Shown: positions 28,767 to 62,749 of the stretch, piece by piece
How positions within the stretch are numbered: the stretch's first letter is position 1
Layout of the letters: each line of letters begins with the position of its first letter
Assembly (NCBI GenBank): GCA_010093995.1
Contig: ML992508.1
Span: 530,506-594,505, forward strand
Source of the DNA: Elsinoe ampelina
Taxonomy: Eukaryota
DNA: 64,000 bases
Reading direction: 5' to 3'
Translations under genes and position numbers: made by a program
The notes under the pieces: generated by a model
The model's database searches: none
What the model saw: the letters and a program-made list of their open reading frames with translations, nothing else
Told to the model about the DNA's origin: nothing

Positions 28767-29173
28767 ACGAGGACATGATGAACGTGACATGAGCAAAAGT
28801 ACTCTACATGCACCAAGGTGTGCCTAATCGAAGGAATGTGAACTCATTCTGCGAGCCACGTGCTTCCCCTGAAATGCATGCATGTGAGGACGGCCTCTGA
28901 AGCCAAGCAATGGCGTCCGTCTGTCGATCCAGGTCCCTGGATTATTTTCGAGCTTCCCAAATGAACGACCCCTCTTGTTTCCAAAACAACCATTGACCAC
29001 CACCTCTTCGATTATATCCAGCAATTTCGCGTCTCCCATTCTCCCAGCCCTCTTTACACCCACTCCCTTCGCATTTCGCAATCTCGTCCCACTCATCACC
29101 ACCCACCGATCCCCGTCCCACACCCACCACTCACCATCCCACCACCATCAACTCCCACCCACCCGGACCAACC

Positions 29174-30181
29174 ATGACCGACCGCGCCGTCCCCCTCACC
29201 TGCCACGGCCACTCCCGCCCCATAACCCACCTCACCTTCTCGTCCCTCCTCGCCCCCACCACAACCGACACCCCGACACCTTCCTCCTCCTCCACAGCCC
29301 ACTACCTCCTCCTCTCGACCTGCAAAGACCAAAACCCCATGCTCCGCGACGGGCCCACAGGCGACTGGATCGGCACCTTCCTCGGGCACAAAGGGGCAGT
29401 ATGGTCCTCGCGCCTCTCCGCCGACGCCTCGCTAGCCGTGACGGGCAGCGCGGACTTTTCGGCCAAGGTATGGGATACTTTCACGGGTGAATGCGTGCAG
29501 AGCATCAGCGAGGCGCATATCGTGCGGGCGGTGGCGATCAGTGCCGCGGGGAGGGGGAGGGTGGCGACGGGGGGCATGGAGAAGAAGGTCAAGGTGTGGG
29601 ATTTGGGAGGGGAGGGGGCGGGGGCCCAGGCGGTGGAGGTGGGGAAGGGCGTGCATGGGGGTACGGTGAAGAGTTTGGTTTTTCTAACGGGACGGGGCCC
29701 AGGGGATGGTGGGAATGAGATTGTGTCGGCGGGCGATGATGGGGTGGTGAGGTGGTGGGATTTGAGGAGTGAGAGGGCGGTGGCAGAGGCGGACGTGGGG
29801 GCGCCGGTGGGCAGTTGTGAGTTGAATAAGGTTGATGGGGAGGGGGAGGGGATACTGAGTTTGGCTGCCGGGAAGGCGGTGTGGTTCTTTGATGGCGCGA
29901 GGCCGGGCGAGTTGAGGAAGATGGTCAAGATGCAGAAGGATACGAGTTGTGTGGCGATCAATGAGAGCGCGGGGAGGTTTGTGACGGGGAGCAGTGCGGA
30001 TACGTGGGTGAGGGTGTTTGATTTGGAGACCGAGGAAGAGCTGGAGACGTTGAAGGGGCATCATGGTCCGGTTTGGACTGTGTCGTATAGTCCGGATGGG
30101 AAGCTCTATGCGACTGGCTCCGAGGATGGCACTATCAAGCTGTGGAAGGCAACGAGGGAAGCGTACGGGCTCTGGAAGTGA
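29174..30181 (+). CDS. WD40 protein, STRAP/UNRIP-like
   Basis: VPLTCHGHSRPI, PMLRDGPTGDWIGTFLGHKGAVW, GHHGPVWTVSYSPDGKLYATGSEDGTIKLW. Confidence 0.92.
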   Translation: MTDRAVPLTCHGHSRPITHLTFSSLLAPTTTDTPTPSSSSTAHYLLLSTCKDQNPMLRDGPTGDWIGTFLGHKGAVWSSRLSADASLAVTGSADFSAKVWDTFTGECVQSISEAHIVRAVAISAAGRGRVATGGMEKKVKVWDLGGEGAGAQAVEVGKGVHGGTVKSLVFLTGRGPGDGGNEIVSAGDDGVVRWWDLRSERAVAEADVGAPVGSCELNKVDGEGEGILSLAAGKAVWFFDGARPGELRKMVKMQKDTSCVAINESAGRFVTGSSADTWVRVFDLETEEELETLKGHHGPVWTVSYSPDGKLYATGSEDGTIKLWKATREAYGLWK

Positions 30182-32216: not shown

Positions 32217-34110
32217 TTACTCTCCACCATTCTCACTATGTACAACACTCTTCTTCCTGATAGCCGCATTCTCAATCTCTGCAAGACTCTGCTGCCTCGC
32301 CGTGCCAAATCCGACTTGCTGAACGTCCTGGAAGCTGACAGTCGGAACAAATCCTGGACTCTTCCATGCCTTGTCGACCTTGGCATATAGCTCGTCGACC
32401 TGCTCAAGGCTCAGACCCTTCGTCTCGTATATCATGCTCCAGACGAAGAAGATGCAGATGAAACAGCATCCTCCCCAGATGAAGAACACTTTGGCGCCCA
32501 GATTAGCATCACCAGGTTCGGAGTTGACTAGGTAAGGGGTGGCGTAGGCGACTGTTGTTGTGTTAGTGTCTTGGAGGTTGAAGTCTATGTGGCGTCTTCA
32601 CTTACTGGCCCAGTTCAGTAGCCAATTGGAGCTGGGGGGTTTGTCAGTTATGCAGTTCGAGACACAGCATGATAGAAACCACTTACGCCGTCGTCATCGA
32701 CAGGCACTTCGCTCTCACACGCAAAGGGAAGAGCTCGCCTGTCACAACCCAAGCGACAGGACCCCATGAGCAGGCAAAGAAGAAGATATAGATGCAGACG
32801 AAGGCAATGAGCGCCCTCTGTGCAGGAAAGTCCTGAGTATTGGTGCCCGTGCCGACTCCTGCTACGATGAACTGGCAGACCGCCATGCCAATGGCACCGA
32901 AGAGGAGGAGGTTACGACGACCCCATTTCTCAACGAGGTAAAGCCCGGGGAAGGTGGACCCGACATTGATGCAGGAAGTGATGAGCCCGATGGTGAAGGG
33001 ATTCTGGAAGCCCGAGTTTTGGAAGAATTGCTAGTCTCGTCAGCAAGTTGCCACAAAAGACCAGAATAAGTTTGTTGCGTATTCTATTGTGGTACACTTA
33101 CCGGTCCGTAGTAAAAGATGAAGTTCACTGGATTGTGATCAGTATTCTCGCACAATAAAGAGTGTACGAAGTGCGTAGCTTACCTCCCGTGAGCTGCTGG
33201 AGAGACTGAAGAAGACACCCAGTAGCAAGACGCTTCCCGACAGATCCCTTGAAGCAATCGGCAAAAGAAGCCTTGCCCAAAGACATTTCGTATTCGTGGT
33301 TGGCCTGAATCTCTCCCAGCTCTTCTTGCAACGCCGGATGATCAACATCCAAGCGTCGGAGACGAGAAAGTGATTTAGCGGCGAGGTCAAGTCGGTCACG
33401 CTTGATGTACATGCGAGGTGTCTCCGGGAGCAGGAGCATGCCAAAGAAGAGAATGAGTGCCCATGCGAACTGAACAGCGATAGGGATACGGTACGATCCA
33501 GTATCATTTCTGTTCTTGGTAGCATTTCCCACAATTGAGGCAAGAAGAAGCCCAATAGTAATGGCAAGCTGGTAGGATCCGACAATAGAACCTCTGATCC
33601 ACTTCGGCGCCGTCTCAGATTGGTATAGCGGGATCGAAGCTGATATCATGCCGACCCCGAAACCGGCGAAGAATCTACCAGCCACGAACAAAGGGATGGC
33701 GGTAGCAATGGTCTGTAAGATCACACCGACGGTGAAGACCACAGTAGATGCCATGAGTCCGAAGCGACGGCCGATGAAGTCGCAAGTGGGTCCGGCGGCG
33801 AGAGCACCGAAGAATGTACCTGCAGACAGCAGAGAGACAATCTCGGAGGTCTGAGATGCCGTCACATCGAGATCTCCATCTTTGTTCCGGTATCCAGTGG
33901 AGAACGTGTCTCGCCAGTACCGCATGGCGAGAATATCACCAATGGTTCCAGTATCGTACCCGAAGAGGATACCACCTGCAATCTTGTCAGAAAGGTCCTC
34001 GACGCCTCATGCGCGACGGGAGACTGACCGAAGGCCACGAAAAGGCCGACTGCAATAGCTGGCCATGCTGCGCCAGCAGTATTTGGTGGAGGCTTGATGA
34101 GGATGGTCAT
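32217..34110 (-). CDS. MFS sugar porter, high-affinity glucose transporter-like
   Basis: FGGILFGYDTG, PLYQSETAPKWIRG, LPETPR, QQLTG.NFIFYYG, GELFPLRVRAK, YETKGLSLEQVD; several introns and micro-exons. Confidence 0.93.
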
Positions 34111-35243: not shown

Positions 35244-35965
35244 TAGCGCTTCTATAAAAGCACTTAAAGCTATAGCAAATTAAGCGTGTTATTATTAAAA
35301 GGATTGCTAAGCCGCCTATACTAAATTCTAGACTAGCTATATTAAGATAAACACTTGTAGTAGCCTGTATTAACCCTTTAATTAAATAGCTTAAATAGCT
35401 TAAATAAGCTAATTATATTAATTAAATTAATAGGCCTTTAGCTAATTACTATTATTATATCTAGATTAGTAAAAATACTTAAGACTTAGATTCTTAAGAG
35501 AGAGAGTAACTATAATACTTAGTGTAACTATTAGAGCAGAGTTAGAGTAGCTAAAGGCTAACTCTAGTACTAGTATAGAGCTATTCTTAGCGAGTTAGCA
35601 CCCGGTGCTAAACTAAACAGCACTAGCTCTGTACTCTACTATATTAGTACTAGCACTAGTACTACGCCGAGCTACACTAGCACTAGTACTATACCGTAGT
35701 TAAGTAAGAATAGTACTATACTATAATAGCGCTATACTACACTATAATAGCACTACACCGAATTAGCACTAGAGTTAAATCCTAGTATTATACTACGTTA
35801 TAGTACTACGCCTTAATTAGGCTTTAAGGCAACTATAGTTACTATACTATACTTTAGTATTATAATAAGTCTATAGAAAGGAAATTTAATAGTCTAGTCT
35901 ATGTAAAAATATACCTACCTAATTCTTATAGTTTATTCTTATAGTATTATAGAGGAGAGATCTTA

Positions 35966-36547
35966 CTAATTAAAGAAAGTAAGTAGGTAGTACTTATTAT
36001 AATATTTCCTAGTAAGCTAAGAGTCTTTCTATATAATAGTATAACACTTAGTATAGATAGTATTAAGATTATAATCTACTATAGTTATTAGTATAAGGTA
36101 TTATATATTCTAAATATATAGTTAATATACCTTCGAAATATCCTACTAGTATTACCTTACTTACTTTCTAGAGACACTTAATAGCATCTAGCGTAAAGCA
36201 TAAATCTCTACTTATAAGTGTTAACTTAATATCTTACGTAATATCGCAAATAACATAGGAGAAAGAAAGCTTATATATAAGAAGTTTAGTTATCTTCTAG
36301 TAGCGATAAATCTCTTAGAGAGTAATAGCTATACTATATTAGATATAAGACTATAAGAATTTACTATAAGAAACTAACTACCTAGCTTAAACCTATAGCT
36401 CTTCGCCTAGTAAATTTATCTAGTTAATACTAGTCTAAATTTTGTTACGTAACTACCTATAGTAGGCTTTTTAGTAGTAGTTTTCTTAGCGCCTTACTTC
36501 CTTAGCTTTGCTCTTTTTAGAGGTGTTACTTGCTTCTTATAAGCTAT
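35966..36547 (-). pseudogene. Histone H3-like gene in hAT copy A (RIP-inactivated)
   Basis: Reverse complement of the 46248-46829 copy, same 582-bp span; retains EI.RY*K, DL.FTLDAI.CL*, GYFE. Confidence 0.9.
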
Positions 36548-36919
36548 AGCTATATAAATTTTTAAATTAATTATTAAAATTTGTTTATAAAGGTAAAGAA
36601 GAGTAAGGCGAAAATACTAAGAGTAAGATATTAAGCTTTATTAAGGAATTTATAATAGTATATAAAATATAAATTTTATATTATTATTCTCTACTATAAC
36701 GACTTTATATTAACAATATTAATAACTTTATATTAGTATAATAATAGGATTAATACCTATTATTACTTATATTTCTAGCTACTTTATTTACTATATATAT
36801 AAGAAATACTAAATTCGTCTCTCTTTATCTTCTCCTTATAAAACTTATATCTTATATCTTACTTTCTATTATACTTAATATTCTACCTTCTCTTATAAAT
36901 TACTACTAATTCTTAATCT

Positions 36920-38226
36920 ATAATATCTACTAATCTTATAGATTAGTAAACCTTTAGTAAAGAGAAAGAAATAACTAATACTCTAGTAATTAAGACTAAA
37001 GAAATAACTAAGGAAGAGGAAGTAATCCTTACTATAATAGGAGTAATTCTTATAGATACTTCTTATAGTTAAATACTAACTAGACTATAGAGTTTTAATT
37101 CTAAGGCTAATAAGATTAAATACTAAATTAAAAATTGCTCTTAGAATACTAGAACTTCTTACTATAGCTACCCCCTTAGAATTCTATAGTAGAAAGTATA
37201 GCTTAGTAATATCTAGTAAGCTATTTAGTAAAGAGATTATACTATATAAGCTAGTATAGAGGAGAAAGCTCTTACTACTACTAGTAATACTAATTGCTCT
37301 ATAAAATATATACTTAAGGTAAAACTTAAGAACTCTAAGGAATTCTAAGTAATATTTAATAAGAAGAAAGAAGCTACCTTTAATATAGTATATAAGAAGA
37401 TAGCGGAGACTTACTATTATACCTAGTAGAGTAGTATATTTCTTATAGTATATTCTTATAGTATATCTACTAATTCTATATAGGAGAATAGTTAGAGGAC
37501 AAGTTTATATCTATCTACTAAAAATAAAGTAGTATTTATAAAGCTAATACTCTTCTTTACTATAAGTAACTCCTTATTAATTATATAAAGAAGATACTCT
37601 ATAACAAGACAAATATATTTCTAAATTGCTAAGTAAAATATTTTCTTAGCACTAGTAGAATTCTTAAGAAATAGACCTATAAGATCTACTATAATAGTAT
37701 TAACTTACTATATAATACTAGTAACTATAACAATAGTAACTAAGCTAAGTTTAAGAAGTTTATTAAGAATATAACACCTACTAAACTCTAAGTAGTATAG
37801 GTGAATAATTAGGTATATATTATTTCTTATAGTTGTTTCTTATAGTTATATACTAATCTATTAAAGTAAATATAAATCTACCCCCGAACTAGAATTTAAG
37901 TATAAGAATAACAATATTTTACTTAAATCTAATAATTACTATATTAAGTATAGTAATAACAAGGTTAAAGAAGAAGTTAAGAACAACTTTAAGATTAAAG
38001 ACCTCCTTAATAAAAAACCTAATAAGTATAAGACTAAGGAAGTAGCTAAAATATACTATAAGGTAGTTACTACTAAAGACTTTAATAATTCTAATAAAGA
38101 GAATTAGGATAAAGATAATAATAAGGCAATAGATAAGAGTAATAATAATAATAAGGAGAGTAAGAGTAAGAACAATATAGATAAGAATAAATAGATTAAC
38201 CTTAAGTTAGGAAAATTAGACTATAG
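36920..38226 (+). pseudogene. hAT cargo gene: coiled-coil protein with a long acidic C-terminal tail (RIP-inactivated; copy B at ~44569-45875, minus strand)
   Basis: TATA (36791-36803) and CT-rich leader; long frame whose stops are TAA/TAG consistent with CAA/CAG; GAA/GAT/AAT/AAG-rich 3' end. Boundaries approximate. Confidence 0.6.
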
Positions 38227-40585
38227 TTTTAGTAGCTTTCTAGTTCTATACTATTAAAATTTTTTTAATCTATAAATTAAAAGTAGCTAATAGATTCTTA
38301 TAGAGTATTCTTATAGTCTTCTACTCCTTATTATATAGCTAGTAATATTTTATATTTCTACTCTTAAAATGTTAGTATTTAATAAAGACTTAGTTAATCC
38401 TTAACTATAGATACTCTTAGAAGTTGTTATACTACTACTACCTTTCCCCTACGAGCTTAAAGAGTTCTATATTAATTGCTAGGATAATTTATTCTCTACT
38501 TAATTCTATAAAACTATTAAAATTGTTAGCTATCTACTCTACTAACTAGATATACTACTTAAAGAATAGCTAGCTATATAAGCCTAAAAAACATAGTAGC
38601 CTATAATATTAATAGGTAGCGAATTAAGAGTTAGCAGAATACAAAACCTACTAAACTAGAATTCTATAACTCGCTATAGAGTTATTTAGGCTAACTTTAA
38701 CAAAGGTGCTAAGCTTACTAATAGAATACCTCTTATGTATTATCTATACTATAGTAGAGCTTTATAACACCTAATAACAAACTTAATTAGTAATAAACAC
38801 CTAATAAAACATCTTAGATGCTAAAGCTATTAGAATATAAAATCTCTTAGCTATAAACAATTAGTAGCTTAGATAGCTCTAATATAATTAAAAGTAAATA
38901 CTACTAGTACTATATTCTATATACTATAATTCTCCTTAGAACAATTTAAAAAAGAGCTTATTAAGGTTCTTATTAATTATAATTAGTTATTTCGAATAGT
39001 TAATAATTTCTCCTTTCTCTAATTTATATATTTCCTCTAGCTATATACTAATATTCTAGGTCGAACGCGAGCCTTAGAGCTATTAAAAGAGTACTATAAG
39101 GATATTTAGTCTAATCTTCTTACTAATCTTAGTAGTTAGATAAAAGTTTTAATTACGTTAGATAGCTAGTCTATAAATAACTATCTAAGTTTTATAGCTA
39201 TAAAGGTATACTATATTAATAATAACTAGTAAGTACGTAAGTGCCTACTAGATTTTATACTAATTAGTAGATAGTATACTAGAGTTGCGCTTAGCACGGA
39301 ACTACTAAGAGTTCTAAATAAAAAAAAGATTAATATATATCTTCTCGCTATTATAGTAGATAATATAAGTAACAATAACACTCTACGATCTAAAGTATAA
39401 TAAGGTCTTAAGAAGAAGAGTATATACTAGTATAACTATTAGAGCAGAGTTGGCCCCTTTAGGTTTAGTACTATACTAGGGTTTAGGTCGGCCTCTAGCT
39501 AGCGTAGTGCCGCTAAGGGCTTAGTAGCACTAGTACTAGCTCCGCACCGTAGCCGTAATAGCACTATACTAGTACTAGGTGCAGGTTAGGTCGTATATAT
39601 TCTAGACGTAGTATAGTACTAGGTTAGGTTAGTAGATAAGTAGTGTAGTACTATTAAGTCCTTAGTATACCCTTACTAGCACCGCACTAGGGTTACTATT
39701 CTTATAGTAAATTCTTACGGCAACTACTATGTCCTATAACTCTTATTACTTTTCTACTCTAAATACTTAAAGTTATAGTAGGTAAAGGATACTAGAGAGA
39801 AGCAAAAGTTATTAATTATTAACCCTTATATATAATTACGACCTAATAGTGATTTATAGAAGATTAACCTAATTAACATTATCTATATAACCTCTATAAG
39901 TCTATTTTATATACTTAGCTAGTAAGCTATACACTACCTAGAACTAATACCTTATTATTTTATTATCTACTTTATCCGGAGGACATTCTATCCTTAGTAA
40001 GTTTACCCTTATATAAATTATAACTCTTAACTAGTAAACTAGAGTACTAAAGCCATTAGGCAGAGTCTAAGACTAGAATAATTAGTTCTAGGTAGTTTAG
40101 CCTTTCTACTAACTTATAGTATAGTTACGGATTGCCTTAATACTATTAGATTGCTAGTTAATAGTAAGTGTAAGGCCGTCTAGGGCCTTAATCTCTACCT
40201 AAAGGTTATTAATAAATTTATAGTAAGTAATATTAGCCTAACGAATAATAGAGAGGCAAGTAGTAGATATAGTAGTAGATTTACTTAAATTCTAGTAACT
40301 GTTAGTATAAGTTATACTATAGCGATATAAAGGCATACTAGATAGTTGTTTAAATATTCCTAAGGAGAGAAAGAAGTAACTTAGCTAATAATCTACTTAT
40401 ATCTCTTAGTATAATAATAGCTATTATTCGATAATAGCTATTATTAGTATTATTGTTTTTTTATAATAGATAATAGCTATTATCTATATTGTTATTCTTA
40501 TAATAGGTAACGCTAGATATATATACCTTTTAGTTACTATTTCTCCTTCTTTCTCTTAAACCTCTCTTTCTCGTTGTTTAATATC

Positions 40586-41600
40586 TTCTTCTATAATGTC
40601 TCCTTCTTATGCTTAACTCTACCTCGACCTAGTAGATCTAATTCTCTTTTAGCCTTGTAAGATAACTTCTAGTAACTACGCTAGGCCCTTATACCTACGT
40701 TAGTATAAAGCCTATATCTGCTATATAACTCTTATATATCTTAACTTTAACAACAACTACGAAATCTAAGCCGAATATATCTATAATAACTATAGAGGTT
40801 CGGCACTTCGCTATAAAGCCTACTACACTTATAATACTCCTTATAACTTTATAGGTGTTCCTAATCTAATCTTTCTCTATAATCTAACGAATATTAGTAT
40901 AATATCTTATAGACTAACGACATCTTCGACCTAATCGACATATAGCGCGCTATTAATCGTCTTATTCTCGATAGAAGAGCAGATTTACTCTTACTCTTTA
41001 CTATGTACTATAATATTAAACGTAAGTAGGAGGAGTTAGATTATATTAACGACAGTAACAATAGTATTTCTTCTAACAACTAATCTAATTAAGGTGGCGT
41101 AGTTAAAGCATCGGCGGGCTAATAGCTTTAGATAGTTATTAATAATATAGACTTACACTTTATAAAGACTTAATTATATTACCTCTTCCTATAAGTGACT
41201 AAAATTAACTATAATAACGGCGTATATAAGCTCTTAAAGTAGAAGTGTTTATATTACCTCTAGCTACACTAGTAGTTATATTACTACCCTAGGTAGCACT
41301 ATCGGTACTAGCGGTAGAAGTACCTCTCTTATTGTCCCCTTTACTATCGGTGTTATTCTAGAAAGTAACCTAACTATTATCGGGCTTAAACCTAGTAAGG
41401 AAGTTAGGAGTATAATAAGGTAGATATTAGTAATAGCGTAGAGAGTAGTGTCGGTAATAAGTTAGCTAAGGTCGTAGGTGCTATAGTAGAGATAGTTATT
41501 AAGGTCGATAATAAAGGGAGTAGTATAGAGATTAGTTATAGCTTTAGCCTTTGTATTATAGTCGATCTACATAATTTCCTTATTAACGTTTTTATAAGCG
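40586..41600 (+). pseudogene. hAT cargo gene convergent with the transposase, two introns, unknown function (copy A at ~49000-50022, minus strand)
   Basis: TATA and CT-rich leader; ATG kept in both copies; introns 40851-40897 and 41022-41131 with branch sites and consistent phase; exon 2 TNDIFDLIDI*RAINRLILDRRADLLLLF. 3' end approximate. Confidence 0.6.
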
Positions 41601-41851
41601 AATCTAGTACGACTAACGTAGATACGAATATAGTTATATTAAAGATACTAGCGGGCAAGGGAATAAGCTTCCTTAGAGCGGCTAACGAAAGGAGACTATT
41701 AGTATTAGTAGGTGGAATTATATATAGTAATAGAGAAGGTACACGCAGAAGTACTTTAGAGTAGGTGTTAGTATAGATACTATAAGAGTATTATTACTTA
41801 GAGGCTATTAACTAGATATACTTAGAATACTAGCCTCTAACCTTAGCAACG

Positions 41852-44388
41852 TTATGTAGTAGATCTTTGTCCTTATTATACTCTTCTTCCTTGTTAACCT
41901 CTTTGTCGCTTAAACTATAGGTAGTAATATCTCTAAAGTTGTCGCTTATACCGTCTATCCCGCTATTAGTATTATTATTAGCGGTAGTAAAATTGTCTAT
42001 CTTAGCTAATTAGATGTTTTAAAGATTGTTTTCTACTAGCTTAGAGACTATAATTTATTAGATTATCTACGGAAGTAGTCTATGCCTTCGATTACTAATA
42101 ATATTCTTCGCTATATTAAAAACATATTTAACACCTACGCCGGCGATTAGTATTATAAGAATATTATAAGTAACATAAGCTAGTTATAGGAATAAGTACT
42201 TATTTTCTTTCTACTAAGAAAGAATGTTAAATTCTAATGTTTCCTATATAGGTAGAGTTCTAAGGTAATTCTTCTCTTCTATCCTTATTATATAGATATT
42301 ACTCTACTCTTACGAAAGTATATTATCTTAGCTAGATACTAGAGGTGTAAAGCTACTCCCTATGTTTAATAAGGAAGACTTCTTAAACTAGTAAGTAATA
42401 GACAAGGCTAGTAGAGGAGGCAGGAGAGTAGTTTAAGGAGGGTAGTTATTATTATAGTAATTAAGGTAGTCGAGGAACTATTTATAGTAAAGCAATTTAA
42501 AATATAGTTCCTACAAAGTATACTTATATATACTAAGTTTCTAAGTTAGATCTAAGATTATACTATAATTAAATAGGAAACCTTAACCTCTACTTGTTTA
42601 CTTATAATACTTAGAAAGCTTAGTATAACTAGCTTTCGCTACATTTTATATAACTAATAGCTAGTCTAAGTTATTATCCTCTTTCTAAGTAGACTTAACT
42701 ATATTAAGAAAGTTAAAAAGAGTATTATACATAAGCTATATATATTATACTAATAGCGTATAAGACTAACTTAGCTAGTTAGTTACATCCTTAAAATTCT
42801 CTAGTATTTAGACAACAATCTTTAGATATGCCTATTCGGTATAGCCGAGGTAAAGGCGTTTTATATCTACGCAATTAATAGATGCTATATCTTAATTAGC
42901 TAGCGCTTTATTAGTTTAGAGCTTATATGCAATTATAATCTCTACGTTAAGCTATTTGTTAATAATTAGTTAAAGTTTAATAGCTTACTTATATATATTA
43001 TACGTTAAGTTCTAATAGGTATAAACGTCCTAAATAACTAAGAGTTATTTACGAGGAGGTAGATATGCTTAAAGGGATTTAAAGTGTTAGTAGCGTTAAG
43101 GGGATTAGTTAATTATAATACAAATTACATAGAGCTTTAAAATTGGTTAAAAAACTATAAGAAAGAACTATAAGAAATATAACTTACTTTATAGAGGGAA
43201 TTTAAAACTGATAGAGTTATTCGAATATTACGGAGATACTACTTCTTAAGCTTATTAGCTTTCTTATTGTCCTCGGTGGTTTCTAGCTATAGGGCTTAAA
43301 TAATATCTTATATAACAAGATTAATTACGTAGGCTAGACATAGAATTATATTCTCGATAGAGAACTAGTATATACTTTTCTTCTTAAGACCTTGTTATAC
43401 TTTAGATCGTAGAGTGTTATTATTGCTTATATTGTCTACTATAATAGCGAGAAGGTATATGTTAATCTTTTTTTTATTTAGAACTCTTAGTAGTTCTATG
43501 CTAAGTGTAACTCTAGTATACCGTCTACTAATTAGTATAAAATCTAGTAGGCACTTACGTACTTACTAGTTATTGTTAATATAGTATGCCTTTATAGCTA
43601 TAAAACTTAGATAGTTATTCGTAGACTAGCTATCTAGTACAATTAAAACTTTTGTCTAACTACTAAGATTAGTAAGAAGATTAGACTAAATGTCCTTATA
43701 GTGCTCTTTTAATAGCTCTAAGGCCTACGTCTAACCTAGAATATTAGTATATAGCTAGAGGAAATATATAAATTAGAGAAAGAAGGAATTATTAACTATT
43801 TAGAATAACTAATTATAATTAATAAGGACCTTAATAAGCTCTTTTTTAAATTGTTCTAGGGAGAATTACGATATACGAGATATAGTGCTAGTAGCGTTTA
43901 CTTTTAATTACGTTAGAGCTATCTAAGCTACTAATTGTTTATAGCTAGGAGATTTTATATTCTAGTAGCTTTAGTGTCCGAGATGTTTTATTAGGTGTTT
44001 ATTACTAATTAAGTTTATTATTAGGTGTTATAAAGCTCTACTATAGCGGAGACAATATATAAGAGGTGTTCTATTAGTAAGCTTAGTACCTTTATTAAAG
44101 TTGGCCTAAATAACTCTATAGCGAGTTATAGAATTCTAGTTTAGTAGGTTTCGTATTTTACTAACTCTTAATTCGCTACCTATTAATATTATAAGCTACT
44201 ATGTTTTTTAGGCTTATATAGCTAGCTATTCTTTAAGTAGTATATCTAGTTAGTAGAGTAGATAGCTAATAATTTTAATAGTTTTATAGAATTAAGTAGA
44301 GGATAGATTATCCTAGCAATTGACATAGAACTCTTTAAGCTTATAGGGGAGAGGTAGTAGTAGTATAACAACTTCTAAGAGTATCTAT
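41852..44388 (-). pseudogene. Uninterrupted hAT transposase of copy B (RIP-inactivated)
   Basis: Reverse complement of the joined halves of the copy A transposase, with the same motifs. Confidence 0.88.
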
Positions 44389-46247
44389 AGTTAAGGATTA
44401 ACTAAGTCTTTATTAAATACTAACATTTTAAGAGTAGAAATATAAAATATTACTAGCTATATAATAAGGAGTAGAAGACTATAAAAATACTTTATAAGAA
44501 TTTATTAGCTACTCTTAATTTATAGATTAAAAAAATTTTAATAGTATAGAACTAGAAAGCTACTAAAACTATAGTCTAATTTTCCTAACTTAAGGTTAAT
44601 CTATTTATTCTTATCTATATTATCTTTACTCTTACTCTTCTTATTATTATTATTACTCTTATCTATTGCCTTATTATTATCTTTATCCTAATTCTCTTTA
44701 TTAGAATTATTAAAGTCCCTAGTAGTAACTACTTTATAGTATATTTTAGCTACTTCCTTAGTCTTATACTTATTAGGTTCTTTATTAAGAAGGTCTTTAA
44801 TCTTAGAGTTATTCTTAACTTCTTCTTTAACCTTGTTATTACTATACTTAATATAGTAATTGTTAGATTTAAGTAAAATATTATTATTCTTATACTTAAA
44901 TTCTAGTTCGGAAGTAAGTTTATATTTGCTTTAATAGATTAGCCTATAACTATAAGAAATAACTATAAGAAATAACCTATACCTAATTATTTGCCTATAC
45001 TACTTAGAGTTTAGTAGGTGTTATATTCTTAATAAACTTCTTAAACTTAGCTTAGTTACTATTGTTATAGTTGCTAGTATTATATAGTAAGTTAATGCTA
45101 TTATAGTAGATCTTATAGGTCTATTTCTTAAGAATTCCGCTAGTGCCGAGAAGATGTTTTACTTAGCAATTTAGAAATATATTTATCTTATTATAGAGTA
45201 CCTTCTTTATATAATTAGTAAGGAGTTACTTATAGCAAAGAAGAGTATTAGCTTTATAAATACTACTTTATTTTTAGTAGATAGATATAAACTTATTCTC
45301 TAACTATTCCCCTATATAGAATTAGTAGATATACTATAAGAATATACTATAAGAAATATACTACTTTACTAGGTATAATAGTAAGTCTCTACTATCTTCT
45401 TATATACTATATCAAAGATAGCTTCTTTCTCCTTATTAGATATTACTTAGAATTCCTTAGAGTTCTTAAGTTTTACCTTAAGTATATGTTTTATAAAGTA
45501 ATTAGTATTACTAGTAGTAGTAAAGGCTTTCTCCTCTATACTAGCTTATATAGTATAATCTCTTTACTAAATAGCTTACTAGGTATTACTAAGCTATACT
45601 TTCTACTATAGAATTCTAAGGGGGTAGCTATAGTAAGAAGTTCTAGTATTCTAAAAGTGATTTTTAATCTAGTATTTAATCTTATTAGCCTCGGAATTAA
45701 AACTCTATAGTCTAGTTAGTATTTAACTATAAGAAGTATCTATAAGAATTACTCCTATTATAATAAGAATTACTTCCTCTTCCTTAGTTATTTCTTTAGT
45801 CTTAATTACTAAAGTATTAGTTATTTCTTCCTCTTTACTAAAGGTTTACTAATCTATAGGATTAGTAAATATTATAGATTAAGAATTAGTAGTAATTTAT
45901 AAGAGAAGGTAGAATATTAAGTATAATAGAGAGCAAGATATAAGATATAAGTTTTATAAGAAGAAGATAAGGAGAGAAGAATTTAGTATTTCTTATATAT
46001 ATAGTAAATAGAGTAGCTAGGAATATAAGTAATAATAGGTATTAATCCTATTATTATACTAATATAAAGTTGTTAATATTGTTAATATAAAGTCGTTATA
46101 GTAGAAAATAATAATACAAAATTTATATTTTATATACTATTATAAATTCCTTAATAAGGCTTAATATCTCGCTCTTAGTATTTTTACCTTACTCTTCTTT
46201 ACCTTTATAAACAAATTTTAATAATTAATTTAAAAATTTACATAGCT

Positions 46248-46829
46248 ATAGCTTATAAGAAGTAAGTAACACCTCTAAAAAGAGTAAAGCTAAGGAAGTA
46301 AAGCACTAAGAAAACTACTACTAAAAAGCCTACTATAGGTAGTTACGTAACAAAATTTAAACTAGCATTAACTAGACAAATTTACTAGGCAAAGAGCTAT
46401 AGGTTTAAGCTAGGCAGTTAGTTTCTTATAGTAAATTCTTATAGTCTTATATCTAATATAGTATAGCTATCGCTCTCCGAGAGATTTATTACTACTAGAA
46501 GACAACTAAACTCCTTATATATAAGCTTCCCTTCTCCTACGTTGTTTATAACATTATATAAGATATTAAGTTAATACTTATAAGTAGAGATTTACGCTTT
46601 ACACTAGATGCTATTAAGTATCTCTAGGAAGCAAGTAAGGCAATACTAGTAGAATATTTTAAAGGTATATTAACTATGCATTTAGAATATATAATACCTT
46701 ATACTAACAACTATAGTAGACTATAATCTTAATGCTATTTATACTAAGCGTTATACTATTATACAGAAAGACTCTTAGCTTACTAAGAAATATTATAACA
46801 AGTACTATCTACTTACTTTCTTTAATTAG
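46248..46829 (+). pseudogene. Histone H3-like gene in hAT copy B (RIP-inactivated)
   Basis: Exons 46248-46416, 46467-46664, 46720-46829; direct translation gives RFKLG/TIALREIYYY*KTTKLLIYKLPFSYVV...DLRFTLDAIKYL*EASKAILVEYFK/DYNLNAIYTKRYTIIQKDS*LTKK, collinear with the H3 histone fold. Confidence 0.92.
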
Positions 46830-49800
46830 TAAGACCTCTCCTCTATAATACTATAAGAATAAACTATAAGAAATAGGTAGGTGTATTTTTACATAGACTA
46901 GACTATTAAATTTCCTTTCTATAGACTTATTACAATACTAAAGTATAGTATAGTAACTATAGTTACCTTAAAGCCTAACTAAGGTATAGTGCTATAACGT
47001 AGTATAATACTAGGATTTAACTCTAGTGCTACTTCGGTGTAGTACTATTATAGTGTAGTATAGCGCTATTATAGTATAGTACTATTCTTGCTTAACTACG
47101 GTGTAGTACTAGTGCTAATGTAGTAGGGTACGGAGCTAGTGCTATTTAGTTTAGCACCGGGTGCTAACCTACTAAGAATAGCTTTATACTAGCACCGGGG
47201 TTAGCCTTTAGCTGCCCTAACCCCGCCCTAACGGTTATACTAGTATATACTAGTCCTCTATTAAGAATATAATTCTATGTCTAGCCTATATAATTAATCT
47301 TATTATATAAGATATTATTTAAGCCCTATAGCTAGAAACTACTAAGGACAATAAGAAAGCTAATAAGCTTAAGAAGTAGTATCTCTATAATATCTAAATA
47401 ACTCTATTAGTTCTAAATTCCCTTTATAAAGTAAGTTATATTTCTTATAGTTCTTTCTTATAGTTTTTTAACTAATTTTAAAGCTCTATACAATTTATAT
47501 TATAATTAACTAATTCCCTTAACGCTACTAACACTTTAAATCCCTTTAAGTATATCTACTTCCTCGTAAATAACTCTTAGTTATTTAGGACATTTACATC
47601 TATTAGAACTTAATATATAATATATATAAGCGAGCTATTAAACTTTAACTAATTATTAATAAATAGCTTAACGCGGAGATTGTAATTATATATAAGTCCT
47701 AAACTAATAAAGCGCTAGCTAATTAAGATATAGTATCTATCGATTGCGTAGATATAAAACACCTTTACCTTAGCTACGCTAAATAGGCATATCTAAAGAT
47801 TGTTATCCAAATACTAGAGAATTTTAAGGATATAACTAACTAGCTAAGTTAGTCTTATACGCTATTAGTACAATATATATAGCTTATGTATAATACCCTT
47901 TTCGACTTCTTTAACGTAGTTAAGTCTACTTAGAAAAAGAATAATAACTTAGACTAGCTATTAGTTATATAAAATGTAGTAAAAGCTAGTTACACTAAGC
48001 TTTCTAAGTATTATAAGCAAACAAGTAGAGGTTAAGGTTTCCTATTTATCTATAGTATAATCTTAGATCTAACTTAGAAACTTAGTGTATATAAGTATAC
48101 TTCGTAGGAACTATATTTTAAATCGCTTTACTATAAATAGTTCCTCGACTACCTTAATTACTATAATAATAACTACTCTTCTTAAACTACTCTCCTACCT
48201 CCTCTACTAGCCTTATCTATTACTTACTAGTTTAAGAAGCCTTTCTTATCGAATATAGAGAGTAGCTTTACACCTCTAGTATCTAGCTAAGATAATATAC
48301 TTTCGTAAGAGTAGAGTAATATCTATATAATAAGAATAGAAAGGGAAAATTACCTTAGGACTCTACCTATATAGGAAATATTAGAATTTAATATTCTTTC
48401 TTAGTAGAAAGAAAATAAGTACTTATTCCTATAACTAGCTTATATTACTTGTAATGTTCTTATAATACTAATCGCTAGCGTAGGTATTAAATGTGTTTTT
48501 AATATAGCGAAGAATATTATTAGTAATCGAAGGTATAGACTACTTCCGTAGACAATTCGACAAATTATAGTCTCTAAGCTAGTAGAAAACAATCTTTAAA
48601 ATATCTAATCGACTAAGACGGACAATTTTACTACTGCTAATAATAATACTAATAGTAGAATAGATAGTATAAGTAATAACTTTAGAGATATTACTACCTA
48701 TAGTTTAAGTAATAAAGAGGTTAATAAGGAAGAAGAGTACAATAAGGACAAAGATCTACTATATAACGTTACTAAGGTTAGAGGCTAGTATTCTAAGCGT
48801 ATCTAGTTAATAGCCTCCGAGTAATAATACTCTTATAGTATCTATACTAATACCTACTCTAAAGCACTTCCACGCATACCTTCCCTATTACTATATATAA
48901 TTCTACCTACTAATGCTAATAGTCTCCCTTTGTTAGCTACCCTAAGGAAGCTTATTCTCTTACCTACTAGTATCTTTAATATAACTACATTTATATCTAT
49001 GTTAGTTATACTAGATCCGCTTATAAAAACGTTAACGAGGAAATCGTATAGATTAACTATAATATAAAGGCTAAAGCTATAACTAATCTCCGCGCTACTT
49101 TCCTTGTTATTGACCTTAATAACTACCTCCGCTATAGTACCTATAACCTTAGCTAACTTATTACTAACGCTACTCTCTACGCTATTACTAATATTTACCT
49201 TATTATACTCCTAACTTCCTTGCTAGGTTTAAGCCTAATAATAGTTAGGTTACTTTCTAGAATAACATCGATAGTAAAGAGAACAACGAGGGAGGTACTT
49301 CTACCGCTAGTACTAATAGTGCTACCTAGAGTAGTAATATAACTATTAGTGTAGCTAGAGATAATATAAACACTTCTACTTTAAGAGCTTATATATGTCG
49401 TTATTATAGTTAATTTTAGTTACTTATAGGAAGAGGTAACATAATTAAGTCTTTATAAAGTATAAGTCTATATTATTAATAACTATCTAAAGCTATTAGC
49501 CCGCCGACGCTTTAACTACGCTACCTTAATTAGATTAGTTATTAGAAGAAACACTATTATTACTATCGTCGATATAATCTAACTTCTCCTACTTACGTTT
49601 AATATTATAGTATATAGTAAAGAGTAAGAGTAGATCTACTCTTCTATTAAGAATAAGACAATTAATAGTGCGCTATATATCGATTAAGTTAAAGATGTTA
49701 TTAGTCTATAAGATATTATACTAATATTCGTTAGATTATAGAGAAAGATTAGATTAGGAACACTTATAAAGTTATAAGGGGTATTGTAAGTATAATAGGC

Positions 49801-52199
49801 TTTATAGTAAAGTACCGAACCTCTATAGTTATTATAGATATATTCGGCTTAGATTTTATAGTTGTTATTAAAGTTAAGATATATAAGAGTTATACGGCAG
49901 ATATAGGCTTTGTACTAACGTAGGTATAAGGGCCTAGCACAGTCGCTAGGAGTTATCTTATAAGGCTAAAAGAGAATTAGATCTACTAGGTCGAGGTAGA
50001 GTTAAGTATAAGAAGAAGACATTATAGAAGAAGATATTAAATAACAAGAAAGAGAAGTTTAAGAGGAAGAAGGAGAAATAGTAACTAAAAGGTATATATA
50101 TCTAGTATTACCTATTATAAGAACGACAATATAGATAATAGCTATTATCTATTATAAAAAAAACAACAATACTAATAATAGCTATTATTAAACAATAGCT
50201 ATTATTAAACAATAGCTATTATTATACTAAGAGATATAAGTAGATTATTAGCTAAGTTACTTCTTTCTCTCCTTAGGAATATTTAAACAACTATCTAGTA
50301 TGCCTTTACGTCGCTATAGTATAACTTATACTAATAGTTGCTAGAATTTAAGCAAATCTACTACTATATCTACTACTTGCCTCTCTATTATTTGTTAGGC
50401 TAATATTACTTACTATAAATTTATTAACAACCTTTAGGTAGAGATTAAGGCCCTAGACAGCCTTATACTTACTATTAACTAGTAATCTAATAGCATTAAG
50501 GCAATCCGCAACTATACTATAAGTTAGTAGGAAGGCTAAACTATCTAGAACTAATTATTCTAGTCTTAGACTCTACTTAATAGCTTTAGTACTCCGGTTT
50601 ACTAGTTAAGGGTTATAATTTATATAAGAGTAAACTTACTAAGGATAGAATATTCTCCGGATAAAGTAGATAATAAGATAATAAGGTATTAGTTCTAGGT
50701 AGTATATAGCTTACTAGCTAAGTACGTAAAATAGGCTTATAGGGGTTATATAGATAATATTAATTAGGTTAATCTTCTATAAATTACTATTAGGTCGTAA
50801 TTATATATAAGGGTTAATAATTAATAACTTTTGCTTCTCTCTAGTATCCTTTACCTACTATAACTTTAAGTATTTAGAGCGGAAAAGTAACAAGAGTTAT
50901 AGGACATAGCAGTTGCTATAAGAATTTACTATAAGAATAGTAACCCTAGTATAGTGCTAGTAAAAGTACGCTAAGGACTTAATAGCACTATACTACTTAT
51001 CTACCGACCTAACCTAGTACTATACTACGTCTAGAATATATACGACCCGACCTATACCTAGTACTAGTATAGTACTATTATAGCTACAGTGTAGAGCTAG
51101 TACTAGTACTACTAAGCTCTTAGTAGCACCGCGCTAGCTAGAGGCCAACCTAAACCCGGTATAGTACTAAACCTAAAGGGGCTAACTCTGCCCTAATAGT
51201 TACACTAATAATACTTAGAGATTAACTCTTAAGGTAGCCCTCCTTAAAAAGGATATACTTAGATATACAATTTATAACATTAACTAGATACTAGTAGTTA
51301 TAAAGCCTAAAGAACTAGCTCTAGATACTAGTAAAGGCACTAAGGTAGTCTATAAGGTTAGGAATAAGACCTAGTATAAGAATAATAGAATTACTTATAG
51401 TGTTATTATAATAAGGATTTATAAATCTATTAGACCTTACTATAGTATAACTTAGAAGACTTTAAAGAAACTTCTAGATACTATTAAAGCTATATTTAAA
51501 CCTATTGTTTTATATAAGCTATATATAGCTATCTATAACCTTAATAAGGTAATTATAACAAGTTATAATACCTAAAGGTACTATAAAGATTTTATAAAGT
51601 ACTATTATTAATACACTATTACTATAGAGCAAAGAGTAAGCACTATTAGTACTAAACTAGATAAGTTTAGGCTCCCTCTATACTATATTAAGACTATATT
51701 TATTATAGGAATAGAGACTACTAAATAGTTAAGGAGCTAAAGATCTAGCCTTAACTATAAGAAGAGTCTTAAAGAGATAATAGACTCTCTTAGAATATAA
51801 AAGCCCTTATATAATAGAAGAACTAATCTAAACTCTATTTATAGAGTAGCTAGTTATATTAAGGATTAATACACTTAGTATACTTATTATGTCTACTCTA
51901 ATATAGATTACTTTAAGTAGTACCCTAAGAAAGTACTAAAGAGTTAGAGTAAAAGGAATAATAAAGATAGGTTAAATAATAAAGGTATAAAGGCTAAAGG
52001 CAAAAGTAATAAGTTAAACACTAAGAAAGTTAGAGGTTAAGTAGCTATTAAAGAATCTAGAGAACCTACTAAGGTAGGTAAATTAGATAAACACTCTAAC
52101 ACTAATATTAATATTATTATACTAGTCTATAGGGCAGTAGTAGTATCTATATTATTATCCTTAACCTATAGTAAGAATAGAGTAATCTATAACTCTAGT

Positions 52200-52934
52200 N
52201 NNNNNNNNNNNNNNNNNNNNNNNNNNNNNNNNNNNNNNNNNNNNNNNNNNNNNNNNNNNNNNNNNNNNNNNNNNNNNNNNNNNNNNNNNNNNNNNNNNNN
52301 NNNNNNNNNNNNNNNNNNNNNNNNNNNNNNNNNNNNNNNNNNNNNNNNNNNNNNNNNNNNNNNNNNNNNNNNNNNNNNNNNNNNNNNNNNNNNNNNNNNN
52401 NNNNNNNNNNNNNNNNNNNNNNNNNNNNNNNNNNNNNNNNNNNNNNNNNNNNNNNNNNNNNNNNNNNNNNNNNNNNNNNNNNNNNNNNNNNNNNNNNNNN
52501 NNNNNNNNNNNNNNNNNNNNNNNNNNNNNNNNNNNNNNNNNNNNNNNNNNNNNNNNNNNNNNNNNNNNNNNNNNNNNNNNNNNNNNNNNNNNNNNNNNNN
52601 NNNNNNNNNNNNNNNNNNNNNNNNNNNNNNNNNNNNNNNNNNNNNNNNNNNNNNNNNNNNNNNNNNNNNNNNNNNNNNNNNNNNNNNNNNNNNNNNNNNN
52701 NNNNNNNNNNNNNNNNNNNNNNNNNNNNNNNNNNNNNNNNNNNNNNNNNNNNNNNNNNNNNNNNNNNNNNNNNNNNNNNNNNNNNNNNNNNNNNNNNNNN
52801 NNNNNNNNNNNNNNNNNNNNNNNNNNNNNNNNNNNNNNNNNNNNNNNNNNNNNNNNNNNNNNNNNNNNNNNNNNNNNNNNNNNNNNNNNNNNNNNNNNNN
52901 NNNNNNNNNNNNNNNNNNNNNNNNNNNNNNNNNN
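52200..52934. other. Assembly gap
   Basis: Run of N. Confidence 1.
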
Positions 52935-53277
52935 TCTTTATCTCTAATAGAGAAGGTAAATTTAAGAACTATAAACTAGTAATAGCTATTTATCTTAAAG
53001 GGTAGAGATAGAACATCTCTATACCTAATACTTAATACTAAAATAGTAAATCTAAGGCTACTAATAAAGTAGTTATTCTTAGAATAAGGTATATCTTTAT
53101 TAATTATAGAGTACCCCTTAAACTCTAGTATATAGTTATAAAGTTTGTAATTTATATTAGTAATAGAATTGCCTATACTAAGACTAAGAAGATCCCTATA
53201 TAAGAGCTAAGAAAGAATCTCCTTAATAATAATAGGCTAGTCTTATTAACTTATATTAGACGCTTTAGCTATAGAGC

Positions 53278-53464
53278 TATAAGGGCCTAGTATTAGAGCG
53301 GCACTTAGTAGCGGCTAGTCCCGCTTACGTAACGTACCTACTTATCTTACGCGGTACTTACGCCTTAGACTTAATAGTAATTAGTTCTACTACTAACGGA
53401 CTATTTAGTTAGATAGGTGTTCTCTATATTACGATATATATAGCTTTAATATAAGGCTTTAATA
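53278..53464 (+). repeat. Gypsy 5' LTR
   Basis: Direct repeat of 59781-59967; the differences seen are C/T and G/A transitions; TG...CA termini appear as TA...TA. Confidence 0.93.
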
Positions 53465-59780: not shown

Positions 59781-59967
59781 TATAAGGGCCTAGTATTAGA
59801 GCGGCACTTAGTAGTAGCTAGTCCCGCTTACGTAACGTACCTACTTATCTTATATAGCACTTACGCCTTAGACTTAATAGTAATTAGTTCTACTACTAAC
59901 GGACTATTCGGTTAAATAGGCGTTCTCTATATTGCGATATATATAGCTTTAATATAAGGCTTTAATA
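59781..59967 (+). repeat. Gypsy 3' LTR
   Basis: Direct repeat of 53278-53464, preceded by AGAGGAGGAGG and followed by the TSD AGAGC. Confidence 0.93.
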
Positions 59968-60893
59968 AGAGCCTATATCTATAACTAACATATTTCTAAA
60001 TTATACAAATTCTAAGCTAGAGTACTACTTAGTTAGTATATTAGTATATAGAATAACTTAATAACTAATTACCTTATCTAGATACTCTATTAGTATTATA
60101 CTTAGTAAGCCTAGAAGAGAAAGATTATTATATTACCCTATATAACATTTAATAAGAATATAGTCTATAAAGACTAGGTAATATAAGTTATTAAATAGCT
60201 ATATATCCTATAGATATAACAACCTAAGGCTTTATAGCTTTAGGGAGAGTAAACATTTAGTAGTAATTATAATTAAGGCTATAGCTATAATTAACTACCC
60301 TTTAGTTATAAGAATCTATAAACTACTTAGGCTAAATAACCTTAAGCTAAATAACTAATATCTAACTACCCTTTAATCCCTAGATATAAATAATAATTAT
60401 CTATCCCTATTAAAGAATAGAGAGAGTAATACTAACATCCTAAACTAGATCCTTAACCTATTAATAAATAAAAAAAGTAACTTATTATTACTAATTATAA
60501 GAGTAAAGACCTTATAATACTACTACCTAAAGTTATTAGTAAACTATATTTAACCTTTAATCCTATAGTTAATATTAATTAACTACTAATATATATATAG
60601 AATAAGGATATTAACTTCCTTATTATACTATTTAATATATAACCTCTAACTAGTAAAAGGAAGAGATCTCTCTTACTATAAGAAACTATTAGAAGGTCCT
60701 TTAGAATATATTACTAGATTAATTATAAGAAACTTAATAATAGTAAGATTATTAGATCTATAGCTGTTAATTTTAAGCTAGACCTATAAATAGTAAGAGA
60801 TATACTATTCTCTCCTAAAGGTTATTACTAGTAAGCTATAATAGAGGTAGAGTAGAAGGCTCTAACTAACTCTAAAACCTTTTTAATTATTAA

Positions 60894-61858
60894 NNNNNNN
60901 NNNNNNNNNNNNNNNNNNNNNNNNNNNNNNNNNNNNNNNNNNNNNNNNNNNNNNNNNNNNNNNNNNNNNNNNNNNNNNNNNNNNNNNNNNNNNNNNNNNN
61001 NNNNNNNNNNNNNNNNNNNNNNNNNNNNNNNNNNNNNNNNNNNNNNNNNNNNNNNNNNNNNNNNNNNNNNNNNNNNNNNNNNNNNNNNNNNNNNNNNNNN
61101 NNNNNNNNNNNNNNNNNNNNNNNNNNNNNNNNNNNNNNNNNNNNNNNNNNNNNNNNNNNNNNNNNNNNNNNNNNNNNNNNNNNNNNNNNNNNNNNNNNNN
61201 NNNNNNNNNNNNNNNNNNNNNNNNNNNNNNNNNNNNNNNNNNNNNNNNNNNNNNNNNNNNNNNNNNNNNNNNNNNNNNNNNNNNNNNNNNNNNNNNNNNN
61301 NNNNNNNNNNNNNNNNNNNNNNNNNNNNNNNNNNNNNNNNNNNNNNNNNNNNNNNNNNNNNNNNNNNNNNNNNNNNNNNNNNNNNNNNNNNNNNNNNNNN
61401 NNNNNNNNNNNNNNNNNNNNNNNNNNNNNNNNNNNNNNNNNNNNNNNNNNNNNNNNNNNNNNNNNNNNNNNNNNNNNNNNNNNNNNNNNNNNNNNNNNNN
61501 NNNNNNNNNNNNNNNNNNNNNNNNNNNNNNNNNNNNNNNNNNNNNNNNNNNNNNNNNNNNNNNNNNNNNNNNNNNNNNNNNNNNNNNNNNNNNNNNNNNN
61601 NNNNNNNNNNNNNNNNNNNNNNNNNNNNNNNNNNNNNNNNNNNNNNNNNNNNNNNNNNNNNNNNNNNNNNNNNNNNNNNNNNNNNNNNNNNNNNNNNNNN
61701 NNNNNNNNNNNNNNNNNNNNNNNNNNNNNNNNNNNNNNNNNNNNNNNNNNNNNNNNNNNNNNNNNNNNNNNNNNNNNNNNNNNNNNNNNNNNNNNNNNNN
61801 NNNNNNNNNNNNNNNNNNNNNNNNNNNNNNNNNNNNNNNNNNNNNNNNNNNNNNNNNN
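60894..61858. other. Assembly gap
   Basis: Run of N. Confidence 1.
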
Positions 61859-62749
61859 TACTATAAGACATTTAATAGGATTATTAGTAAATTATAATAT
61901 CTAGCTAATAATATAAGGCCTAATATTAGCTATACTACTAATTACCTAGCTAGGTTCCTTTAGAATCTAACTATAGCTTATATACTTATAGCTAAATAGA
62001 TCTAGAGGTATATTAATAGGACTATTATAAAGAGCCTTACCTTTAAGAAGACTAATAGACTATTAGTTAACATAATTAAGGCCTACTCTAACTTAAACTT
62101 TACTAGAGATAAATTAACTATAAGATCTATATCTAGTACTATTATCTATATACTTAGTATACTAGTTATTTAGAAGTTAAGGCTATAGAAGATTATTATA
62201 TTATTAAGTACTAAGGCTAAATACCTTACCCTTACTAAGACCTATAGAGAGATTAATTAGTTAAGAAATCTTATTATTAAACTTAGGCTACTTACTAATA
62301 TTTACCTTAGCCTAACTATAGTCTTTATTAATAATAAATTAGCTATTAAACTTATAAGAGATTATACTAACTTAAGGAGATCTAAGTATATTAATCTAAG
62401 AAATTATTACTATAGAGAGTAGTATAAACTTAAAGTAATTAAGCTTAAGTATATTAATATAACTTAGTAATTAGCTAATATACTTATAAAGCCTAAATCT
62501 CCTAATAAGATCCTTAATTAATTAGTAAAGGCTAATTACTTAGTATATATCTATACTATATACTTATTTAGATTTTATATATATTATTATTCTAAGTATG
62601 TTATTTATACTACTACTACTTATTAAGCTATCTTATTTATCTAAAGCTTAAAGTAAATTACTTTATTATTAAAGAAGAGAGAAAGGAAAAGCTATTATAA
62701 CTCTATTACTAGCTACTTATACCTAAGCTATATCTACTACTTAGTACTA

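Follow-up and report, generated by a model that had tools for sequence, protein, structure and literature searches.

We studied a 64-kb stretch of the Elsinoe ampelina genome (the window, i.e., all 64,000 nucleotides analysed) and found in it two copies of a hAT transposon, one inserted into the other, each with a complete and divergent histone H3-like gene that is now dead in both copies. Very probably they represent an autonomous-type hAT family of about 7.8 kb that carried a three-exon H3-like gene, became nested and was later killed through repeat-induced point mutation (RIP). In the course of events that we propose, an autonomous-type element of ~7.8 kb would have carried its transposase together with the complete three-exon gene, placed ~0.4 kb inside one end. 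The family would have multiplied in the Elsinoe ampelina genome, one copy would have jumped into the palindromic sequence GTATATAC within the transposase gene of another, and RIP would then have destroyed every reading frame of the nested copies. This proposal starts from direct observation of the anatomy of the element, its nesting, the H3 fold of the gene product, the damage done by RIP and the presence of the family in many copies.

Genomic setting of the element

Elsinoe ampelina, the grapevine anthracnose fungus, belongs to the order Myriangiales of the Dothideomycetes. The first part of the window is host DNA with a GC content of 50-60%, which shifts at ~35.2 kb to 21-35% and stays AT-rich to the end of the window. 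The following host genes were recognized:

2030-3742, minus strand: EamA-type transporter gene
4297-5283, minus strand: aspartyl protease gene
19830-21608, minus strand: RRM protein gene
26483-28366, plus strand: CCCH zinc-finger/DUF1771 protein gene
28997-30181, plus strand: WD40 protein gene

The last long host frame is located at 33125-34006 in the minus strand, and the transposon nest begins ~1.5 kb beyond it. The product of a flanking frame of 627 codons had an identity of 100% with a protein of Elsinoe ampelina, of 88% with one of E. fawcettii and of 84% with one of E. australis. Note that the AT-rich block contains runs of N at 52199-52935 and 60880-61860 (735 and 965 N in the surrounding stretches), either gaps in the assembly or withheld sequence, because of which some bins show 0% GC. 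The same block holds a direct repeat of 187 bp at 53278-53464 and 59781-59967 (93.6% identity, 6.5 kb apart, 33-38% GC), which could correspond to the ends, perhaps an LTR pair, of another RIP-affected element.

Two nested copies of a hAT element

Comparison of the window with itself gave two long matches in inverted orientation, one pairing 35482-39431 with 47276-43364 and the other 39419-43376 with 51215-47242, that look like circular permutations of each other. The features recognized in this region were:

39428..47242, plus strand: inner hAT copy, complete, 7815 bp, with 26-bp inverted ends and flanked by GTATATAC
39428..39453, plus strand: left terminal inverted repeat of the inner copy, beginning with TAGTA
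47217..47242, minus strand: right terminal inverted repeat of the inner copy, with transitions as its sole differences from the left one
39420..39427, no strand: left target-site duplication of the inner copy, GTATATAC
47243..47250, no strand: right target-site duplication of the inner copy, GTATATAC
42022..44300, minus strand: transposase remnant of the inner copy (start approximate), ~99 stops in 790 codons, with hAT-like stretches
35520..39427, minus strand: outer hAT copy, histone-side half, inverted relative to the inner copy
47251..51207, minus strand: outer hAT copy, other half
35512..35519, no strand: left target-site duplication of the outer copy, ATAATACT
51208..51215, no strand: right target-site duplication of the outer copy, ATAATACT
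about 38495-39419, plus strand: N-terminal half of the outer transposase, split from the C-terminal half by the inner copy
47251..48599, plus strand: C-terminal half of the outer transposase, with a Dimer_Tnp_hAT match

The sequence GTATATAC is a perfectly palindromic 8-mer. It flanks the inner copy on both sides and is present once inside it, at 43368-43375, the position that corresponds to the interruption point of the outer copy; therefore, the inner copy jumped into the outer one. In the inner copy a single hAT-like frame spans the GTATATAC site and reaches back to ~44300, so the gene split by this insertion in the outer copy was that of its transposase. The inner copy thus transposed into GTATATAC inside the outer transposase gene, in opposite orientation. 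Subtraction of the inner copy and of one GTATATAC leaves a length of 7865 bp for the outer copy. A reading of the region as two separate elements lying side by side had to be abandoned, since one ~7.8-kb copy lies within the other. The presence of a third, older copy beneath the outer one was also considered and rejected: the flanks of the outer copy slightly resemble the internal target, but their alignment scores (12.5 and 13.5) fell within the range obtained with shuffled sequences (maxima 16 and 17.5).

Four occurrences of the 26-bp repeat, which starts with TAGTA or TAGTG, were found, at 35520 (+), 39428 (+), 47242 (-) and 51207 (-), and the differences among the four ends are transitions only. 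The inverted ends of hAT elements commonly start with YARNG. Both copies (2 of 2) are bordered by 8-bp target duplications, GTATATAC for the inner and ATAATACT for the outer copy, and both gave a match above the cut-off of 21.4 bits to the Pfam family Dimer_Tnp_hAT (PF05699), at 42046-42273 in the minus strand of the inner copy (26.1 bits, E 7.3e-6) and at 48345-48575 in the plus strand of the outer copy (29.4 bits, E 6.7e-7). The combination of 8-bp target duplications with inverted ends that are short and with the dimerisation domain justifies the assignment of the carrier to hAT, made already in the preliminary description.

Searches for the BED finger, DUF659 and the RNase-H-like catalytic core in the six frames of both copies gave no Pfam match with E<=0.1, a result that is uninformative given about one stop every eight codons. 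Likewise, no other domain with E<=0.1 was found in 39454-~42020 (2.5 kb) and ~44300-46247 (1.9 kb), which carries little weight in such stop-dense frames, and a word-indexed protein search with the C-terminal half of the transposase yielded 971 candidates, none with E<=0.001. The transposase gene (minus strand in the inner copy) and the histone gene (plus strand) are divergent, the latter being transcribed outward. Between them, at 44580-44940 in the minus strand, lies a low-complexity stretch rich in Lys, Asn and Glu. Two sequencing runs presumed to be RNA each gave one poorly matching low-complexity piece at 44618-44662 and none on the histone gene, and are uninformative on expression.

RIP damage and other members of the family

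Over 7814 aligned columns the inner and outer copies have an identity of 92.7%; they differ by four small indels and 568 substitutions, 561 of which are transitions. The RIP index TA/AT is 1.8 in the element vs 0.59 in the portion of the window made up of host DNA, and the index (CA+TG)/(AC+GT) is about 0.2 vs 1.25. RIP wrecked every reading frame of both copies. Merging the two copies (C taken over T, and G over A) still left a GC content of 31%, many stops and no long open frames, and is inadequate as a reconstruction of the sequence before RIP. The original coding capacity was read from the two damaged copies, no intact copy having been seen.

The same family was traced in two DNA sequencing runs of the species, where 3622 and 2925 contig pieces matched the 7.9-kb stretch with at least 80% likeness. 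These pieces filled 30 of 30 bins of the stretch and were spread over the likeness classes, with the bins of the histone gene covered like the remainder of the element. At the variant places of run X1, transitions numbered 381 against 7 transversions. The genome thus contains many RIP-diverged copies of the family, in a number that contig pieces do not give. Two contig joins in runs X1 and X2, 43970 to 45581 and 45523 to 46712 (with 17 and 27 other letters in between, respectively), suggest internally deleted family members, the second probably without most of the histone gene.

Structure of the histone H3-like gene

The histone gene, 582 nt long, was found at 46248-46829 in the plus strand (copy A) and again at 35966-36547 in the minus strand (copy B), on opposite strands of the same AT-rich block:

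46248-46416, 46467-46664 and 46720-46829, plus strand: exons of copy A, in the inner element, joined in a frame of 159 codons
46417-46466 (50 nt) and 46665-46719 (55 nt), plus strand: introns of copy A
36547-36379, 36328-36131 and 36075-35966, minus strand: exons of copy B, in the outer element

A 582-bp gene with two introns, located just inside one end of both hAT copies, had been proposed in the preliminary description; the same three-exon gene does occupy both intervals, and its stop lies 413 nt from the end of the inner element and 446 nt from that of the outer one. The two gene copies differ at 48 positions, 48 of 48 being transitions, with no indels. The introns interrupt the reading after codon 56 plus 1 nt and after codon 122 plus 1 nt; they begin with GTTAGT and GTATAT, end with TAG and contain the branch-like sites CTAAT and TACTAAC (TACTAAT in copy B). 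The joined reading of 159 codons is in frame in both copies, interrupted by seven internal stops in A and nine in B. Neither copy has a frameshift, and splice and branch sites are retained. Frame, introns and branch sites all survived much change not attributable to RIP, from which we infer that selection acted on the gene in the transposon lineage before RIP: it was probably intact, spliced, coding and held open while the element was active, and not a decaying fragment.

Histone identity of the gene product

With stops treated as X, exon 2 of copy A matched the Pfam family Histone (PF00125) with 32.9 bits, over the cut-off of 26.4 (E 8.7e-8), and the same exon of copy B reached 18 bits (E 0.0036), under that cut-off. 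Exons 1 and 3, searched singly against Pfam, gave no match. A phmmer search of the full protein library returned 419 proteins with E<=1e-3, the top ones being of H3 type with 54-58% identity, and a phmmer search of solved structures returned 158 matching sequences; 60 of the 60 among the matches listed were histone H3 (best E 1e-8). The claimed collinearity with the H3 fold was borne out. Alignment to the solved H3 chains placed an insertion of five residues in loop 1 of the transposon gene, in agreement with the ~5 extra residues predicted for this loop.

When four H3-type proteins were compared with the 64-kb window by tblastn, the transposon histone gene was the sole locus type found; exon 2 of copy B was not recovered, and no further H3-like or element-like pieces were found elsewhere in the window. 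When longer proteins were searched by word index for the histone exon, 14 candidates came up, of which none reached E<=0.001.

H3 and CenH3 traits of the predicted histone

Residues were assigned as sets per codon, by merging the copies and then reversing C>T and G>A changes. All residues of the protein inferred in the preliminary description lie within these transition-reachable sets, but it is not the unique reading. Several states are firmly H3-like. The protein starts with A-R-K-K-Q and its tail has a string of the P-R-K-Q type; YQ is followed by Lys, E-A-S-E-A is present, and L-R-F has Phe, whose codon is TTT and from which Trp is unreachable by transitions. Support for A-R-K-K comes from the DNA runs of the species, where one contig end has GCT CGT AAG AAG at codons 2-5. 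The PRKQ string and the canonical LRF proposed earlier are among these H3-like states. Other states set the protein apart from H3. KLPF is followed by Ser, and since its codon, TCC, allows S or P but not Gln, the reported change of PFQR to PFSR is supported; Ser was found in 11 of the 175 KLPF-x-R motifs among the fetched proteins, P0196 and P0277 included. Loop 1 is as long as in P0196, P0212 and P0277, CenH3-like representatives of Pezizomycotina type. Codon 138 is CAG (Q or R reachable), giving the string TI-x-QKD; RVTIMQKD, which has this Gln in common with the transposon gene, accounted for 5 of 104 among the motif counts listed, one of them in P0196. Ile is reachable before ALREI. The tail has 56 codons up to P-G and is longer than that of H3, as had been noted, and the C-terminus differs as well. 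At least 19 of the 108 columns of the fold hold residues that cannot be reached by transitions from the majority residue of H3.

The contexts of K9 and K27 deserve a separate mention. A-R-K-S is unreachable at the places aligned with them, and codons 20-23 allow only A, K or R, K, and T or A, in this order. The earlier statement that no ARKS context exists holds as the plainest reading; transition reversal could still yield A-R-K-T at codons 20-23. Because A-R-K-S is unreachable at both aligned places, the predicted histone is an H3 variant and not canonical H3. Judged from its residues, the gene encodes a divergent variant of H3 that is CenH3-like in a few traits. It resembles canonical H3 in the full fold, the A-R-K-K-Q start and the P-R-K-Q tail string, and departs from it in the fold positions counted above, the longer tail and the other C-terminus; with CenH3-like representatives it has in common the loop 1 length, the Ser that follows KLPF and the string QKD. 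Unlike the genes for canonical H3 and CenH3, it resides inside a mobile element and not at a host locus.

The library also contained the H3-like proteins P0265, P0284 and P0285 (304 aa), which have a long acidic C-terminal extension. The P0265 group and the Elsinoe gene have in common the strings H-R-F-K-P-G, P-F-S-R-V-V and R-F-T-x-D-A, and the cluster has 6 of the 19 non-RIP differences of the transposon gene. Proteins of this type may be relatives of the transposon-borne H3-like gene (H3L).

Alternative explanations and possible role

RIP-degraded, AT-rich DNA gives many spurious short frames, and exons 1 and 3 alone match no family, so that a chance resemblance or a mis-joining of frames had to be considered. 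The Pfam match above the cut-off and the matches in the phmmer library and solved-structure searches, the latter all to H3 among those listed, led us to reject it, and in both copies the collinearity extends over all of H3, with introns of consensus-like sequence where the frame changes; the probability left to chance is practically negligible. Descent of the gene from fungal centromeric H3 instead of canonical H3 is a more substantial proposal, and one that we consider unlikely. The loop 1 length common to P0196, P0212 and P0277, the Ser after KLPF of P0196 and P0277, the CAG codon with the TI-x-QKD string that recalls RVTIMQKD of P0196, and the possible Ile before ALREI would fit it. However, L-R-F has Phe where Trp is unreachable, Lys and not Gln follows YQ, the protein has I-x-K-L-P-F and not L-L-K-L-P-F, and E-A-S and not E-A-T/A, and its start A-R-K-K-Q is H3-like. 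The best library and solved-structure matches are canonical H3. The transition-tolerant alignment with the 158 fetched H3-type proteins, with scores of 405-438 among the best 40, does not separate the groups: H3 proteins scored 417-438 and the CenH3-like P0212 scored 434.

On the origin of the gene, a recent and passive transduplication of host H3 or CenH3, followed by neutral decay with the oddities being mere damage, seems rather improbable. It is the published reading of the RIP-inactivated Mycosphaerellaceae copies in the accessible text of PMC6710886, every copy seen here is dead, and no expression was seen, nothing falling on the gene in the two presumed RNA runs, themselves uninformative on this point. 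Against it stand the fold columns (at least 19 of 108), the five-residue loop insertion and the longer tail, all beyond transitions from canonical H3, and the frame, start position, both introns and branch sites retained in both copies. We are also doubtful that the histone was a working tool of the transposon, a nucleosomal H3 variant that would blunt silencing based on H3K9 and H3K27 or guide insertion. Such a function would suit the occurrence of hAT-borne H3-like genes in three orders of Dothideomycetes (in print for Pleosporales and for that of the Mycosphaerellaceae, here for Myriangiales), the intact, nearly identical Pyrenophora copies with ESTs described in the accessible text of PMC3538342, and a tail that in its plainest reading has neither A-R-K-S context. 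Yet every copy here was silenced and mutated regardless, A-R-K-T at codons 20-23 is still reachable, and the recurrence fits equally well the capture by accident, more than once, of a gene that is small and highly expressed. In the plainest reading, the gene would have been captured and then have travelled as a passenger, as the accessible texts of PMC3538342 and PMC6710886 propose.

The histone may have had a role in the element's chromatin. A bolder view, to which we assign little probability, is that H3L would be an old, selected accessory gene of one hAT lineage across at least three Dothideomycete orders, and not the product of serial captures. It would encode a nucleosomal variant without the K9 and K27 contexts and with a loop 1 of CenH3 length, which would keep the chromatin of the element open or bias its landing; the Elsinoe gene would be the intron-bearing ancestral form and the Mycosphaerellaceae genes a processed derivative. 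Few known proteins are as constrained as histone H3, and a divergent H3 travelling in a transposon is unusual in this light. Elsinoe adds a third case to the two in print, from another order of the same fungal class, and because the full intron-bearing gene is in frame here despite much divergence not due to RIP, a lasting partnership between hAT elements and an H3 variant is worth asking about. For the Elsinoe ampelina genome, the dead element mainly marks a past transposon burst and RIP activity.

Comparison with published hAT elements carrying H3-like genes

The preliminary description had suspected that the class might not be new, and the accessible texts of two articles (PMC3538342 and PMC6710886) prove this suspicion right: the pairing of hAT and H3-like genes is already in print for other fungi, and Elsinoe is a further example. 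A literature search whose coverage was outside subscription journals and supplements gave no report of such an element in Elsinoe. What Elsinoe adds to the class is Myriangiales as a new host order, the full gene with introns, the mixture of H3 and CenH3 traits and the self-nested insertion. Note that the Elsinoe element is set beside the Pyrenophora and Mycosphaerellaceae elements by description and not by sequence.

According to the accessible text of Manning 2013 (PMC3538342), Pyrenophora tritici-repentis has hAT elements of 5.6 kb and, in a short form, 2.3 kb that carry H3L; its 26 intact copies of H3L are nearly identical, have ESTs and show little RIP. The gene is said there to be 'matching neither' H3 nor CenH3 and to have a longer tail, and introns are drawn for it according to the legend of the EST figure. 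As far as that text goes, the Elsinoe and Pyrenophora elements are alike in being hAT, in their inverted ends and dimerisation domain, in a full H3-like gene near one end, in the longer tail of its product and in extra element sequence of unknown function. They differ in size and state: the Elsinoe element measures 7.8 kb and all copies seen were killed by RIP, whereas that of Pyrenophora measures 5.6 kb and is intact. The hosts belong to different orders, Myriangiales and Pleosporales.

The accessible text of Dhillon 2019 (PMC6710886) describes hAT elements of 9.5 kb with H3-like copies in six Mycosphaerellaceae, among them species of Pseudocercospora, Cercospora and Sphaerulina, all inactivated by RIP; the surveyed genomes named in it include no Elsinoe and no other member of the Myriangiales. 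These H3-like copies, one or two per element, are given as intron-less, which was taken as a sign of transcript capture, and mostly truncated; DUF659 was found in the elements and the dimerisation domain was not. On this account, the Elsinoe and Mycosphaerellaceae elements are alike as multi-copy hAT families destroyed by RIP, located in AT-rich blocks and with H3-like sequence inside, and both make 8-bp target duplications, with inverted ends of 18-20 bp there and 26 bp here. The domain findings are reversed, the dimerisation domain having been found in Elsinoe and DUF659 not, and each Elsinoe element carries, in contrast to the copies described in that text, one full-length gene with two introns.
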